45,525 bases of DNA from a virus (Duplodnaviria > Heunggongvirae > Uroviricota > Caudoviricetes). A program made the position numbers and the translations under genes. The notes below the pieces were generated by a model, which was given only the letters and a program-made list of their open reading frames with translations, did no database searches and was not told where the DNA came from. Location of the stretch: the IMG/VR virus record IMGVR_UViG_2531839662_000040, positions 1-45,525 of that record; one strand, 5' to 3'. Below are positions 33,687-45,525 of this stretch, one piece after another. The first letter of the stretch is position 1; each line of letters begins with the position of its first letter.

Positions 33687-35303
33687 ATGTCTGTATTAAT
33701 CTCAGGCGCGCTTATTAATGGCGCTGGCGTTCCGATGGCGGAATGCAAAATTTATTTAGATGCACTGGTTAATACCAGTGAGGTGGTCACTGAATCATTC
33801 GCGGTTATTGAAACCGATGCGGCGGGACAGTATGCCTTTGAAGCGCAAAAAGGCAAATACACCGTACACATCAAGCAAAAGAACGGCCCCAAGTGCTGCG
33901 TGGGTGATATCGCTGTATACGATGACTCAAAGCCCGGCACACTGAATGATTTTCTGACCGCCCCCAATGAAGGCGACCTCAAACCCGACGTGGTGAAACG
34001 CTTTGAGGAAATGGTGGCGCAGGCGCAGCAGAGCGCGGAAGCGGCAGCGGAAAGCGAACGACAGGCCGGGCAACACGCAGCTGATGCGCAGAAGATTAAG
34101 GGTGATTGCCAGACGCTGGCAGATAATGTTCAGCAGAATACAAATGCTGTGGAGGAAAACACGCAGCGCGTTGAACAGCTGGCCTCAGAAGTTGAGCTGA
34201 ACGCCGGGCAGGTGCAGCAGGGCGTGCAGAATGTTACTGATGCGGTAAAAAAGGCGCAGCAGGCAGCAAAGAATTCTGCTGACAGTGCCACTGACTCAAA
34301 AAACAGTGCTGACAACGCCGCCCTGAGCGAACAGAACGCACAAAAACACGCGCAGAAAGCTGAACAACATGAGCAGCAGACTAAACAATATGCGCAGGAT
34401 GCAGCGACCGCCGCAGAATCAGCAGAGAACGCCAAAGGCGAAATTGACGAAATTCTGGATGGCGGCTATCTCAAGATAAAAAACAACTTTCAGGAAATTG
34501 TTGATGCTGGCCCCTCAGCACTGGCTCAGGCCCAATGGAATTTACAGATTTCCGGGGTGAAAAATAAACAGGTAATTGCCACCCCTTATACATGGCCATC
34601 CAGAACTGAGTATGAACAAAGGGTGCATCTGCCACTCGCCGGGGCTTACGGATTTGGCTACACGTTTGAAGACAAAAGCCAGGGACGTATAAACCTTAGC
34701 GAAAGTTACACCGGCTCCTGGTGGTCACAGTGGGTAAAGCCGGGGCGTTATTACGTTACAACCAGTGATAAACAATATCTGACACCAGACGGGTACACGT
34801 ACGGGGTTGTTGATGTGCTGTGGCTTAACGGTAACGCATATAATGACGCTTCGCAGGTTCTTAAAATACTGGCTTTTTACGATGGTGACGGATGCCTGCA
34901 TATCGGCAAGCGCGTTGGTCAGAGCAACTGGTCAATAAGCTGGCGCAAGCTGACATCGCTCCCTGATGTCAGGGCCATGCTGTATTCATATATTTATAAT
35001 AATTACAACAGAGAATGGCGTGACCCGGAGCTGGGAGGTTTAATTCTGGCGTCATACCAGGGAACCGCAGACGGCGACACAAATATAAAAGTATCCCGTG
35101 GTCAGACTTATCCCGGCTCACGACTTGCACCTGTGGCGATAGAATGCCAGTTCACTCCATCCGGTACGTATGCCGCAACACCGCGATTCCATATTACCGG
35201 CTGCAAGAGCAAATCACTCCCCGGAACTTATATTTCACTGTCTGGAGCACCCACAACATACAGCGACCAGGCTTTTGTGGCGCTATTCATGAGGATTGCA
35301 TGA
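33687..35303 (+). CDS. side tail fibre protein (lambdoid Stf-like N-terminus)
   Basis: 538 aa; MSVLISGALINGAG N-terminus of lambdoid Stf type; Ala/Gln-rich coiled middle; distinct C-terminal domain. Confidence 0.65.
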   Translation: MSVLISGALINGAGVPMAECKIYLDALVNTSEVVTESFAVIETDAAGQYAFEAQKGKYTVHIKQKNGPKCCVGDIAVYDDSKPGTLNDFLTAPNEGDLKPDVVKRFEEMVAQAQQSAEAAAESERQAGQHAADAQKIKGDCQTLADNVQQNTNAVEENTQRVEQLASEVELNAGQVQQGVQNVTDAVKKAQQAAKNSADSATDSKNSADNAALSEQNAQKHAQKAEQHEQQTKQYAQDAATAAESAENAKGEIDEILDGGYLKIKNNFQEIVDAGPSALAQAQWNLQISGVKNKQVIATPYTWPSRTEYEQRVHLPLAGAYGFGYTFEDKSQGRINLSESYTGSWWSQWVKPGRYYVTTSDKQYLTPDGYTYGVVDVLWLNGNAYNDASQVLKILAFYDGDGCLHIGKRVGQSNWSISWRKLTSLPDVRAMLYSYIYNNYNREWRDPELGGLILASYQGTADGDTNIKVSRGQTYPGSRLAPVAIECQFTPSGTYAATPRFHITGCKSKSLPGTYISLSGAPTTYSDQAFVALFMRIA

Positions 35304-35872
35304 TGCAGATAAAAGAAATTACCAGCCCCCACTACACCGAATCCGGTGCGATTGACTGCGAAGTTTTATTTGAAGGGATGGATGAAGCCGTTCCGTACAC
35401 AGCCACACCAGAAGACACAGCAACAACAGGCCAGCAAATTTGGCAGGAACTGCAAAGCGGCAAATGGGGCGAGATTGCCCCGTTCACCGCATCACCTGAA
35501 CTTATCGCAGCAGCAAAGGACGCCAAAAAACGGGAAATTGAGGCATGGCGCACAGAACAGGAAGCGCAGCCATTCACGTTCGAATGGAACGGCCGCACAT
35601 GGAACGCTGGCCCCGACTCAATGGCCCGTCTTTATCCTGTGGTAATGGCTGCAAAATCTGATACGGCACGAACTGCCCTTGCGTGGGGTGACGCCGATAA
35701 TCAACAGGTGAAACTGTCGATGCCGGAACTGGAAGAACTGGCAGCCGCGATGGCGCAGGCGCAGGTTGAGCGCAATGACGAGATTTATCAACGCCAGCGT
35801 GAGATGAAGGAGGAACTGAATAACCTGGATGATTTACGCTCAATCAGAGCGATGACGATTAGCAGCAGTTAG
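35300..35872 (+). CDS. tail fibre assembly protein (Tfa)
   Basis: ATGA overlap with fibre stop; 190 aa; highly similar to the Tfa at 44953..45525. Confidence 0.65.
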   Translation: MMQIKEITSPHYTESGAIDCEVLFEGMDEAVPYTATPEDTATTGQQIWQELQSGKWGEIAPFTASPELIAAAKDAKKREIEAWRTEQEAQPFTFEWNGRTWNAGPDSMARLYPVVMAAKSDTARTALAWGDADNQQVKLSMPELEELAAAMAQAQVERNDEIYQRQREMKEELNNLDDLRSIRAMTISSS

Positions 35873-35876
35873 CGGT

Positions 35877-35937
35877 CAATTCTGGACTTTTTGGGCGCAC
35901 CTGAACCGTCCAGAATTGCGCGTCAATCAGTCCAGAA
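35877..35937. repeat. inverted repeat CAATTCTGGAC / GTCCAGAATTG with third TCCAGAA copy
   Basis: 11-bp arms separated by 20 nt; third half-site about 12 nt further on; lies between a Tfa and an N-terminally short fibre ORF. Confidence 0.35.
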
Positions 35938-43525: not shown

Positions 43526-43549
43526 TGTTTTCTGAATCAGGAAATAAAC

Positions 43550-44953
43550 ATGTCTGTATTAATTTCGGGTGTGCTGACGGATGGTGCGGGACTCCCCATG
43601 TCCGGATACCATATTATTCTGAAAGCCCGACAGAATACATCCGCAGTGGTCATGAGAACGGTGGCAACAGTGGTGACGGGGCCGGCAGGAGAATATGCAT
43701 TTGAGGCTCAGACCGGAAGATATGACGTTTATCTTCGGTCATGTATTGAAAGAGAATATTGTGTCGGTGATATTTCGGTTTACGACGATTCAAAGCACGG
43801 CACGCTGAACGACTTCCTGACCGCTCTCGATGAAGGCGACCTGAAGCCAGATGTTGTTAAGCGGTTCGAAGAACTGGTGGTGCAGGCGCAGCAGAGCGCG
43901 GAAGCGGCAGCGGAAAGCGAACGACAGGCAGGGCAACATGCTGAAGCGGCAGCTCTGATAAAAGAGCAGGTTGAAACGCTGGCAGATAATGTTCAGCAGA
44001 ATACAAATGCTGTGGAGGAAAACACGCAGCGCGTTGAACAGCTGGCCTCGCAGGTTGAGGATACCGCCGAAGAAGTCAGGCAGGATGCTGAAGCCGCCAA
44101 ACAGGCCGCATCCGATGCAGAGCAGGCCAGAGATGATATTGATGTTGCGTTATCTGCAACGCTGAAAACGGCGAATCACCTGTCAGAAATTGCAGCAGAG
44201 GGGGAAGATGCTCAGCAGGAATCCCGAGACAATCTGGGGTTGAAAAGTGCTGCAACGATGGATGTACAAACAGACATTTACAACCGAACTGAAGGTTGTG
44301 TGGCACTTCCGGGAGCTTTCGGTTATGGCGCGTATCCCACACAACGTAAGGAGTTTGATAAATACGCGACATCAGCAACATTTGCTTCTTGGGTACAGAC
44401 CACTCCCCCGGGGCGCTATCTTGTCGTTCAATATGGTGGCCCATATTCCAAGGACATTATAGAAGGGGTTGTTTTTAGCGGAGAGGTAGAGATAAAAATG
44501 CTGGAAACAGCAACGCATGAAAATCAAAACAGGCGCGATAAGTTTGTCATTTTTAACGGGGTTAATCAGGACGTGTATTGTTGTGAGGTCAGGGCGGACA
44601 GTACGAACATACGCTGGACATGCCTGAGTCAAAACTTAACCGCGATAGATGGTGCGAGATGGCTGTATAACATAGCTGGCCCGTGGTACGACGTACCATT
44701 CAGAGATGTGGCAGTTGGCGGCTTAACTCAGGCCGCGTACCGTGCAGCAAATACTGATGAATATACGATAAAACGTGGTGACAGCGTAAGCGGCAGCACT
44801 CTGATTCCCTGCGCTGTTATAGTGTCGAATGACGGAGCACCACGGTATGTGCTGGATACTGGACGCCACTTTTCGGGAGCCTATGTCTCTCTGGGCAACA
44901 GCACTCAGGCGACCAGCGATTTTATTTTCGGTCTGTTTGTGAGAGTTTCCTGA
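43550..44953 (+). CDS. side tail fibre protein (Stf-like), paralog of 33687..35303 with different C-terminal domain
   Basis: 467 aa; N-terminus and coiled region share long identical stretches with 33687 fibre; C-terminal about 230 aa unrelated. Confidence 0.65.
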   Translation: MSVLISGVLTDGAGLPMSGYHIILKARQNTSAVVMRTVATVVTGPAGEYAFEAQTGRYDVYLRSCIEREYCVGDISVYDDSKHGTLNDFLTALDEGDLKPDVVKRFEELVVQAQQSAEAAAESERQAGQHAEAAALIKEQVETLADNVQQNTNAVEENTQRVEQLASQVEDTAEEVRQDAEAAKQAASDAEQARDDIDVALSATLKTANHLSEIAAEGEDAQQESRDNLGLKSAATMDVQTDIYNRTEGCVALPGAFGYGAYPTQRKEFDKYATSATFASWVQTTPPGRYLVVQYGGPYSKDIIEGVVFSGEVEIKMLETATHENQNRRDKFVIFNGVNQDVYCCEVRADSTNIRWTCLSQNLTAIDGARWLYNIAGPWYDVPFRDVAVGGLTQAAYRAANTDEYTIKRGDSVSGSTLIPCAVIVSNDGAPRYVLDTGRHFSGAYVSLGNSTQATSDFIFGLFVRVS

Positions 44954-45525
44954 TGAATGGGATAAAAATAAAAGAAATCAAAAACGCCCGCAGGCTGGAG
45001 AATGGCGCAATTGACTGTGAAGTGTTATTTGAGGGGATGAAAGATTTCATCCCCTACACATCTACACCAGAAGACACAGCAACAACAGGCCAGCAAATTT
45101 GGCAGGAGCTGCAAAGCGGTAAATGGGGGGATATAGCCCCGTTCACTGTATCACCTGAAATGCTGGAAGCAGCAAAAGCCGCCAAACGCCAGGAAATCGA
45201 AGCATGGCGCACAGAACAGGAGGCGCAGCCGTTCACGTTCGAATGGAACGGTCGTACCTGGAATGGTGGTGCAGACTCAATAAGTCGTATTGCGCCCGTG
45301 GCAATGGCGACAAAGGTTGCAGGTACGCGGTCAACGCTGGGATGGGGGGATGCAGCAAATAACCTTGTCACTCTGACAATGGCACAGCTTCAGGAGCTGG
45401 CGGCAGCAATGGCGCAGGCTCAGGTCGATCGCAATGACGAGATTTATCGCCGTCAGCGTGAAATGAAAGAGGATCTGAACAATCTGGAGGATTTGGGTTC
45501 AATCCGAGCGTTTGGTATTGGCTAA
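44953..45525 (+). CDS. tail fibre assembly protein (Tfa), paralog of 35300..35872
   Basis: 190 aa; long identical peptide stretches with the other Tfa; stop codon is the last 3 nt of the window. Confidence 0.65.
   Translation: MNGIKIKEIKNARRLENGAIDCEVLFEGMKDFIPYTSTPEDTATTGQQIWQELQSGKWGDIAPFTVSPEMLEAAKAAKRQEIEAWRTEQEAQPFTFEWNGRTWNGGADSISRIAPVAMATKVAGTRSTLGWGDAANNLVTLTMAQLQELAAAMAQAQVDRNDEIYRRQREMKEDLNNLEDLGSIRAFGIG

Follow-up and report, generated by a model that had tools for sequence, protein, structure and literature searches.

Why do two similar pairs of tail fibre and chaperone genes flank a P2-type tail module on a single stretch of phage DNA? The question is raised by the IMG/VR virus record IMGVR_UViG_2531839662_000040, assigned to the Caudoviricetes, of which positions 1 to 45,525 (the whole stretch analysed here, 45,525 nucleotides, called the window) carry two cassettes that each consist of an Stf-type fibre gene and a chaperone gene. 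A preliminary description of this DNA took the cassettes for a repeat pair of one element, placed around its own P2-type module. The whole window is found in the chromosome of Escherichia coli UMNF18 (NZ_AGTD01000001.1, 1365287-1410813, identity 99.99-100%), a whole-genome shotgun record. The one-element interpretation fails on two counts: cassette 1 lies inside a Mu-like prophage that ends at 35954, and cassette 2 is the last cassette of another prophage, with a lambda-type head and a P2-type tail, which is present in ETEC1738 free of the Mu-like insert at 99.97% identity. It is very probable that each Stf-chaperone cassette is native to one of two nested prophages, where it closes the late operon, and that the identical patches in the two cassettes are the footprints of past exchange. 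The features on which this reading turns are the following.

1..35954, plus strand: Mu-like transposable prophage, of which the window lacks the left 1,130 bp (with the repressor gene and left end).
32083..33066, plus strand: primary short fibre of the Mu-like phage, 327 aa (Phage_fiber_2, Collar and Phage_fiber; phrog_295).
33066..33641, plus strand: Caudo_TAP chaperone of the short fibre (PF02413, E = 3e-32; phrog_105).
33687..35303, plus strand: Stf1, 538 aa, the Mu-like phage's second fibre, a side or collar fibre (PF08400, E = 9e-50).
35300..35872, plus strand: DUF4376 chaperone of Stf1, 190 aa (PF14301, E = 6e-17), with a 44-nt patch at 35405-35448.
35873..35954, plus strand: right end of the Mu-like prophage, terminating in ...CGCGAAGTTACA, with repeated CAATTCTGGAC-type motifs that are also present at the left end.
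35955..37032, plus strand: 3' remnant (358 codons) of a gpH-like tail-collar fibre gene, the first ~91 codons severed by the insertion.
37035..37580, plus strand: lambda-Tfa-type chaperone (Caudo_TAP) of the gpH-like fibre (PF02413, E = 4.7e-23; phrog_136).
37635..43525, plus strand: P2-type tail module (Pfam and RefSeq names).
43550..44953, plus strand: Stf2, 467 aa, terminal fibre (side or collar fibre) of the lambda-head/P2-tail prophage (PF08400, E = 5e-54).
44953..45525, plus strand: DUF4376 chaperone of Stf2, 190 aa (PF14301, E = 3.9e-16), with the patch at 45064-45107.

Where does one prophage stop and the other begin? ETEC1738 carries the same potB-adjacent prophage without the Mu-like element, and this prophage matches window positions 35955-45525 with three mismatches. 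Its gene order runs from lambdoid Q and lysis genes through a lambda-type head and the P2-type baseplate genes V, W, J and I to an intact fibre gene of 449 aa, a Tfa gene, the sheath-to-gpD genes, an Stf gene and a DUF4376 gene. The intact fibre gene, H, occupies positions 19729-21078 of the extracted ETEC1738 locus (L001). The open reading frame (ORF) at 35956-37032 of the window is the 3' part of the cut gene, consistent with a match to the Pfam family Phage_tail_fib that begins only at profile position 95, and in UMNF18 the annotation places the N-terminal fragment of H upstream of the left Mu end. With a slash marking the boundary, the left junction in UMNF18 reads ...GGGGATG/TGTGGGG... 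(longer, ...GAACTGGGGATG/TGTGGGGTGGTGATCAATTCTGGACTGA...) and the right junction ...GTTACA/GATGATCAGC... (longer, ...GTCCAGAAAAAAACGCGAAGTTACA/GATGATCAGCGAC...); the uninterrupted H gene reads GGGGATGATCAGC across the insertion point (longer, ...GAACTGGGGATGATCAGCGAC...). At the left junction there is a second copy of the GATG found at 35955-35958. UMNF18 is the only one of 5,426 complete E. coli genomes in which the junction between the Mu-like element and the H gene occurs. On the other side, the window terminates at the stop codon of the last DUF4376 gene, and potB lies 227 bp beyond this point.

The boundary at 35954 is also that of a transposable element. MuA, MuB and a Mor family protein are all encoded in the Mu-like part, which also has Mu-type head genes (RefSeq annotation of UMNF18), and the RefSeq annotation, the ORF scan and the Pfam scan agree on the gene content of positions 1-~35950. 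The termini are of the 5'-TG...CA-3' type with repeated motifs resembling transposase sites (left TGTGGGGTGGTGATCAATTCTGGACTGA..., right ...GTCCAGAAAAAAACGCGAAGTTACA). The final 40 nt are conserved, with 2-4 mismatches, in the Mu-like prophages of STEC316, RM9088, AH19B041 and Z1323CEC0014, where the matches to the window end at 35954 and unrelated DNA lies beyond each. The insertion sites differ: the H fibre gene in UMNF18, a holin gene in STEC316, chbG in RM9088, tkt in AH19B041 and a site near rarD in Z1323CEC0014. The right-end gene order of these relatives is gp47, gp48, short fibre, Caudo_TAP, PF08400 Stf, usually DUF4376, and then the Mu end, which places cassette 1 among the native genes of the Mu-like phage; in AH19B041 and RM9088, a same-sized gene occupies the position of the short fibre gene 32083-33066.

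How did the arrangement come about? A Mu-like transposable prophage of ~37 kb transposed into the gpH-like tail-fibre gene of the potB-adjacent lambda-head/P2-tail prophage. Because the insert is co-oriented with the host late operon, cassette 1 sits 9.7-9.9 kb upstream of cassette 2 as a direct repeat, and the H remnant, the Tfa of H and the sheath-to-gpD genes lie between them. The apparent bracketing of the tail module is an accidental by-product of Mu-like transposition into the fibre gene of another prophage.

Could the arrangement instead have been created on the computer, by a mis-join or a collapsed repeat that yielded a chimeric contig of two prophages? The UMNF18 record is a whole-genome shotgun assembly, which leaves room for such an error. 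However, the repeats are only 76-87% identical and would not mislead an assembler. Each junction falls exactly at a Mu terminus, the target is duplicated and a single ORF is cleanly split. Moreover, the independent genome of STEC316 has a nesting of the same kind at another site, with both halves of the holin gene recovered. We have rejected an assembly artefact on the strength of the precise termini, the low repeat identity and the STEC316 parallel, and consider it extremely improbable.

The two prophages nested in UMNF18 each have their own tail genes. Within the Mu-like part these are preceded by the transposition genes and also include a tube gene and a gene for a DNA-circularisation protein, with two fibre-chaperone pairs after the baseplate.

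234-2276, plus strand: MuA (RefSeq, Mu transposase C-terminal domain protein).
2295-3188, plus strand: MuB (RefSeq, AAA ATPase).
22200-23621, plus strand: Mu-type sheath.
24551-26830, plus strand: tape measure of the Mu-like phage.
28163-32083, plus strand: baseplate genes (Pfam Baseplate_J and Phage_Mu_Gp48; gp46/gp47/gp48).

In the lambda-head/P2-tail prophage, the genes between the Tfa of H and Stf2 follow the order FI, FII, E, T, U, X, D with P2-type families, and the RefSeq names agree.

37635-39110, plus strand: sheath (Pfam Phage_sheath_1/1C).
39107-39625, plus strand: tube (Phage_tube, FII).
39678-39986, plus strand: gpE-type chaperone (Phage_TAC_7).
40104-41762, plus strand: tape measure of the P2-type module (no Pfam match).
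41759-42253, plus strand: gpU (Phage_P2_GpU).
42228-42446, plus strand: gpX (Phage_tail_X).
42437-43525, plus strand: gpD (GPD below cutoff, 21.3 vs 30.1 bits).

The P2-type module is present in 78 genomes. A probe that joins the 3' end of gpD and the spacer to the opening 240 nt of Stf2 matches without a break in 76 records, roughly all carriers of the module, which marks cassette 2 as native to this phage. The INPHARED collection holds no record matching the module at megablast level, only matches to fibre parts. Upstream of the insertion in UMNF18 (positions 1-3910 and 9731-11253 of extracted locus L002), the Q/RusA/DUF968 early region of ETEC1738 is missing, and the integrase gene abuts a tRNA and the lysis region.

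What do the two cassettes have in common? A repeat search of the window recovers four families of direct repeats, all in register.

33897-34078 and 43760-43941: direct repeat, 84% identity.
34113-34221 and 43976-44084: direct repeat, 87% identity.
35345-35644 and 45004-45303: direct repeat, 82% identity.
35684-35851 and 45343-45510: direct repeat, 76% identity.

The repeated cassettes with identical patches that had been described are therefore real. The two strings quoted at that time occur exactly twice each in the window, with none expected in shuffles (34113-34186 and 43976-44049 for the first; 35411-35448 and 45070-45107 for the second), and the shared stretches represent homology, not chance matches. 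By global alignment, the longest exact runs are 74 nt (34113/43976), 48 nt (34019/43882) and 44 nt (35405/45064). Measured from start to start, the two fibre genes are 9,863 bp apart and the two chaperone genes 9,659 bp; the flanked interval, put earlier at about 8 kb, is 7,677 bp from the end of cassette 1 to the start of cassette 2, so that figure was a fair one. The Stf1 and Stf2 proteins share, as had been noticed, their N-terminal part: they are highly similar, and near-identical in places, over residues 1-178. The two DUF4376 chaperones are 72% identical.

Two other points in that account need revision. The C-terminal domains of the two fibres had been called unrelated, but they align over 235 residues with 26% identity (E = 3e-12), and both proteins match phrog_2636; on this alignment they are distant homologues. 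The label Tfa had been given to both cassette chaperones, which belong to DUF4376 (PF14301) and not to the lambda Tfa family PF02413. Neither has a PF02413 match; the genes that do follow the other two fibre genes. The count of four fibre-like and four chaperone genes, by contrast, is borne out, all within 13.5 kb and all co-directional.

Have the cassettes arisen by local duplication, or do they have separate histories? One could suppose that a single element copied its Stf-Tfa cassette around its own P2-type module and that the copies then diverged, and the two are indeed direct, in register and identical in gene order. Against this, cassette 1 is located within the Mu ends and cassette 2 outside them, and the Mu-free ETEC1738 has cassette 2 without cassette 1. 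In addition, identity between the two copies is only 57% over the first 240 nt, while each is 93-100% identical to copies of its own lineage in other genomes. Local segmental duplication was rejected since each copy has closer relatives elsewhere and a Mu terminus lies between them, and it deserves virtually no weight. The Mu-type collar segment (the first 240 nt of Stf1) is found in 28 genomes, and every position that could be cross-checked is at a Mu-like tail; one place in TUM9812 lies outside the cross-check. In none of the 28 does this segment stand beside the P2-type module except through nesting.

The separate histories of the collar segments do not extend to the rest of the fibre genes. 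Both window cassettes were aligned with the Mu-like Stf of STEC316, the P2-tail Stf of STEC316 and the corresponding genes of phage phiP27, and three zones can be distinguished. In the first ~240 nt, identity tracks the tail type: it is 97.9% between Stf2 and the P2-tail Stf of STEC316, and 92.7% between nt 49-240 of Stf1 and the Mu-like Stf of STEC316. From ~nt 240 to 540 there is a patchwork common to both phage types. Here, phiP27 and the P2-tail Stf of STEC316 change type at the 74-nt patch: a run of 24 informative sites directly 5' of it agrees throughout with Stf1, and every site directly 3' of it agrees with Stf2. Identity to Stf1 and Stf2, respectively, is 99.5% vs 83.5% before the patch and 44% vs 99.0% after it. 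In the third zone, the Mu-like Stf of STEC316 contains a gap-free block of 984 nt that is 98.6% identical to window positions 44050-45033 and ~36% identical to Stf1. This block comprises the receptor-binding domain of Stf2 and the first ~27 codons of its chaperone. Downstream of the block, the STEC316 Mu-like prophage returns to a Mu-type chaperone (89.3% identity to cassette 1 vs 72.3% to cassette 2), and the 3' switch falls between informative sites 45033 and 45040, ~25 nt ahead of the 44-nt patch.

On these alignments, the 74-nt patch is a crossover interval and the chaperone-side switch in STEC316 is placed just 5' of the 44-nt patch. Judging from the 984-nt block, the hybrid expected from a double crossover between such cassettes exists in nature already. 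The shuffling of receptor-binding domains proposed in the preliminary description is thus upheld by natural recombinants, with breakpoints in or beside the very patches that it quoted. The shaft and the conserved body of the chaperone would act as homology arms that move receptor-binding blocks between unrelated phages, and the patches of 74, 48 and 44 nt would be footprints of past exchanges in the E. coli prophage pool rather than of local duplication. Recombination between lambda and resident prophages at stf/tfa has been measured experimentally (De Paepe et al. 2014, PMC3945230), and that paper cites earlier accounts of horizontal transfer of fibre genes (Haggard-Ljungquist 1992; Sandmeier 1994). 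The minimal length for efficient pairing is 31-34 bp for RecA and 23-27 bp for Red-beta, and the window patches, at 44-74 nt, are longer than either (PMC3945230).

Might the identical patches be the work of gene conversion in UMNF18 itself, with the two co-resident cassettes as partners once the Mu-like prophage had inserted? The copies are in cis, 9.7-9.9 kb apart, and among the loci examined the 44-nt patch is confined to the window cassettes and cassette 2 of ETEC1738. However, Stf2 has all three patches in identical form in the Mu-free ETEC1738, and both phiP27 and the P2-tail Stf of STEC316 have exact copies of the 74- and 48-nt patches. Since these genomes hold the patches, conversion within UMNF18 is not a likely source of them. 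Positions 33987-34186 of Stf1 are 99.5% identical to phiP27 and 83.5% to the co-resident Stf2, so that any donor would have been phiP27-like and not Stf2. Furthermore, no Mu-like prophage was found with an otherwise identical Stf1 that could represent the state before conversion; that of Z1323CEC0014 matches over nt 1-456 only. Conversion in UMNF18 is accordingly very unlikely.

What kind of fibres are exchanged in this way? The layout of each cassette is a collar domain of ~80-90 residues, a coiled-coil shaft, a variable receptor-binding domain together with the first ~25-30 codons of the chaperone, and the conserved DUF4376 body. The parts of the two fibre genes are as follows.

33687-~33926, plus strand: Mu-type collar segment of Stf1.
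~33927-34221, plus strand: shared coiled-coil shaft of Stf1, with the 48-nt patch at 34019-34066 and the 74-nt patch at 34113-34186.
~34222-35303, plus strand: receptor-binding domain of Stf1.
43550-~43789, plus strand: P2-tail-type collar segment of Stf2.
~43790-44084, plus strand: shared shaft of Stf2, with the patches at 43882-43929 and 43976-44049.
~44085-44953, plus strand: receptor-binding domain of Stf2.

The PF08400 match covers all 134 profile positions (1-134) in both Stf1 and Stf2. Both N-terminal domains are homologous to gpStfN of Ur-lambda (PDB 9e7m; residues 1-93 overall), with E = 7.8e-16 for Stf1 (residues 1-92) and E = 4.4e-16 for Stf2. gpStfN forms a dodecameric collar around the lambda tail (PMC12617516). 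Residues 1-182 of Stf2 also match, weakly, residues 1-176 of the collar spike gp40 of Vibrio myophage XM1 (PDB 7kjk, E = 4.3e-6), whose N-terminal immunoglobulin-like domain of ~100 residues binds the neck of a contractile-tailed phage (PMC10457771); in the PDB sequence search Stf1 had no match to gp40 at E <= 0.01. The same search returned N-terminal matches only for the two fibres, none for their receptor-binding domains, and no matches for the DUF4376 protein. Proteins of the DUF4376 family have been shown experimentally to be fibre chaperones, and the fibres of Alteromonas phage V22 and of Campylobacter prophages of the CJIE1 type need them in order to function (PMC7289586, PMC7882524). 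By analogy, each Stf would be an accessory fibre whose collar domain is specific to a tail type and docks it on the tail or neck of its own phage, and its DUF4376 partner would fold the distal domain.

How do these fibres compare with known systems? Stf1 and Stf2 resemble the Stf of Ur-lambda in that ~90 N-terminal residues homologous to gpStfN are followed by a coiled-coil shaft. In other respects they differ from Ur-lambda Stf/Tfa. The carriers have contractile tails (Mu-type and P2-type) and lambda is a siphovirus, and the chaperones are DUF4376 proteins instead of Caudo_TAP/Tfa. The receptor-binding domain is also not of the gp37-like His-box type: Pfam gives neither a Phage_fiber nor a Collar match in Stf1 or Stf2. 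That module is found on the separate fibre 32083-33066, where a tail-collar domain is combined with a C-terminus of His-box repeats as in lambda Stf and T4 gp37. Thus, the two fibres share the N-terminal PF08400/gpStfN domain with lambda-type Stf proteins, but neither their chaperone family nor their receptor-binding module. The closest parallel in layout is phiP27, an Stx2e phage whose genes L54-L57 encode a short fibre, Caudo_TAP, a PF08400 Stf and a DUF4376 protein at the right end of the genome, and which has the 74- and 48-nt patches in exact form. Unlike the Mu-like prophage, phiP27 is integrase-based and not transposable, with no Mu end; its collar segment differs from both window types (53-80% identity), and its distal receptor-binding domain from both as well. 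The recombination of stf/tfa between phages and prophages (PMC3945230) is similar in that short diverged homologies in fibre and chaperone genes serve as crossover sites. There, exchange was measured, and here it is deduced by comparing sequences; the partners are a Mu-like transposable phage and a lambda-head/P2-tail prophage, nested in cis in two genomes. With XM1 gp40 there is the N-terminal match of Stf2 to a neck protein of a contractile-tailed phage, but the similarity is weak, Stf1 does not share it, and docking on Mu-like and P2-type tails is a prediction from sequence homology.

It may be asked whether the concentration of fibre genes has a function as a whole, for example as a programmed host-range device in which alternative fibre cassettes are switched in the style of Gin/Cin/Pin, or in which one phage uses both tail modules. 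Four fibre and four chaperone genes within 13.5 kb invite this idea, and the G segment of phage Mu (S/U, S'/U', Gin) likewise sets the host range of a Mu-type phage through a fibre and chaperone pair at the right end; DUF4376 has also been reported to be homologous to the C-terminus of Mu Tfa, gpU (PMC7882524). In the window, by contrast, there is no invertible segment but two co-directional pairs of different families in tandem. No invertase is annotated, no inverted repeats flank the fibre genes (none of >= 25 nt within 31500-45525 beyond chance-level long-range pairs), and the insertion has cut the third fibre gene short. A complete set of sheath, tube, tape measure and baseplate genes is also encoded by the Mu-like phage itself. 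The P2-type module lies outside the Mu ends and is not part of the Mu-like element, and Mu-type replication and transposition move only the DNA between the two ends. An invertible fibre switch was rejected for want of an annotated invertase and flanking inverted repeats, the Mu G segment is a functional analogue only, and a programmed device of either sort has hardly any likelihood.

Could the repeats, nevertheless, act on the tail module, as the proposal that they might delete or swap it would have it? A single crossover in the fibre or chaperone patches would delete 9,863 or 9,659 bp, respectively, and leave an in-frame hybrid. Lost in the deletion would be the right end of the Mu-like element, what remains of the H gene together with its Tfa, and all the genes from sheath to gpD. 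With the Mu right end lost, the Mu-like element would no longer be transposable, and the host prophage would be without tail genes. Deletion is thus possible, but a swap of the module is not, because the crossover would cripple both prophages. No deletion derivative, sought as a baseplate-to-junction sequence, was seen in the 5,426 genomes, a test of almost no power given that UMNF18 is the one carrier of the junction, and the right end is kept in all five of the Mu-like prophages inspected (STEC316, RM9088, AH19B041, Z1323CEC0014 and UMNF18).

The comparisons establish that the prophages are nested, that each cassette is native to the phage that carries it, where the mosaic breakpoints fall, and that the N-terminal domain is homologous to the lambda collar domain. 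Several observations nonetheless weigh against parts of the interpretation given here. The target duplication in canonical Mu is 5 bp; with the element read as TGTGGGG...GTTACA, only 4 bp are unambiguously duplicated, GATG in UMNF18 (window 35951-35958 and positions 19150-19165 of extracted locus L002) and GTCG in STEC316, and the BLAST overlaps are 4 and 5 bp. The N-terminus of the Mu-like Stf of AH19B041 is divergent, with 63-72% nucleotide identity to Stf1. The link between collar type and tail type could result from simple linkage to conserved neighbours and too little homology for crossovers, and not from a docking constraint. The host prophage in UMNF18 looks defective, as its portal gene is frameshifted, its fibre gene is cut and its early region is missing; it was probably defective already. 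Finally, expression of Stf1 and Stf2 and their assembly into virions are predictions, and a strong terminator-like hairpin (33649-33666, AGCCGCCCGCAGGCGGCT then TTTTT) is located after the Caudo_TAP stop, just upstream of Stf1. Hairpins of similar form follow the second Tfa (37599-37616) and the tube gene (39644-39661). In AH19B041 (positions 10263-13241 of extracted locus L006), the Stf protein has 992 aa and no DUF4376 gene precedes the Mu right end.

Is the nesting in UMNF18 a single accident? An independent second nesting of a related Mu-like prophage was found in STEC316 (NZ_CP041431.1; positions 8289-8700 of extracted locus L008 and 8230-8510 of L004). Its target is the second holin gene of an Stx2e-converting lambda-head/P2-tail prophage at ompW, which is of the same family as the host prophage in UMNF18. 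The insert is located just downstream of stxA2/stxB2e and is again co-oriented with the host late operon. This nesting should disrupt the lysis cassette of the toxin phage and could affect toxin release. The MuA/MuB lineage is present in 59 and the P2-type module in 78 of the 5,426 genomes, and both occur together in at least 15 genomes (~8 lineages), against ~0.85 expected if they were independent. [quoted passage not shown] Nesting is seen in 2 of ~10 Mu-like copies, and since only 2 of at least 8 lineages with both elements are nested, the enrichment is merely suggestive.

It is tempting to combine these observations and to propose both that a collar of the lambda Stf type has been adapted separately to Mu-type and P2-type tails and that Mu-like phages of this lineage land above chance in lambda-head/P2-tail prophages, Stx2e-converting ones included; the joint proposal is unlikely. 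If the collar part were true, Stf1 and Stf2 would be neck or collar fibres like XM1 gp40, these myoviruses would each have two fibre sets independent of one another, and freedom to recombine would be limited to what lies distal to the collar. If the nesting part were true, homologous Stf cassettes would be brought together in cis, which could favour exchange of receptor-binding domains between phage types. The tail-type specificity of the collar domain in myoviruses and the second nesting in the Stx2e prophage of STEC316 are the more interesting leads, both unproven. In the literature, no paper was found that joins Stx2e, prophage and Mu-like, and the papers naming UMNF18 with "prophage" do not, by title and abstract, concern this locus.

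Nested prophages and fibre mosaicism are both already well known, and the present case is a further instance that leaves the current understanding of fibre mosaicism unchanged. It does carry a lesson for annotation: when two tail modules and four fibre genes turn up in 45 kb of phage-like DNA, the stretch can be a pair of nested prophages and not one unusual phage. It also provides a natural example of the same receptor-binding block and chaperone N-terminus on two unrelated contractile tails, with breakpoints defined to within tens of nucleotides. The mapped breakpoints are useful as a guide to cut sites for retargeting fibres or tailocins.

Some minor features of the window lie outside this question. 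On the minus strand, an ORF of 181 aa (37589-38134) is antisense to the 5' part of the sheath gene; it is low in complexity and rich in Ala, Ser, Thr and Pro, and is most likely spurious. The head-region ORF 20573-20914 of the Mu-like prophage, annotated as HI1506-related, contains three tandem repeats of 42 nt (14 codons) at 20768-20893. The Mu-like early region holds two copies of an element of ~65 nt (5193-5258 and 5816-5882), which lie 623 bp from each other and contain a GC-rich hairpin (GGCGTAAACCCG.CGGGCTGGCTTACGCC). Lastly, the record PP818812.1, named "Actinobacillus phage vB_Apl-pPE4", has 89% nucleotide identity to this E. coli fibre region, which is surprising for the stated host.

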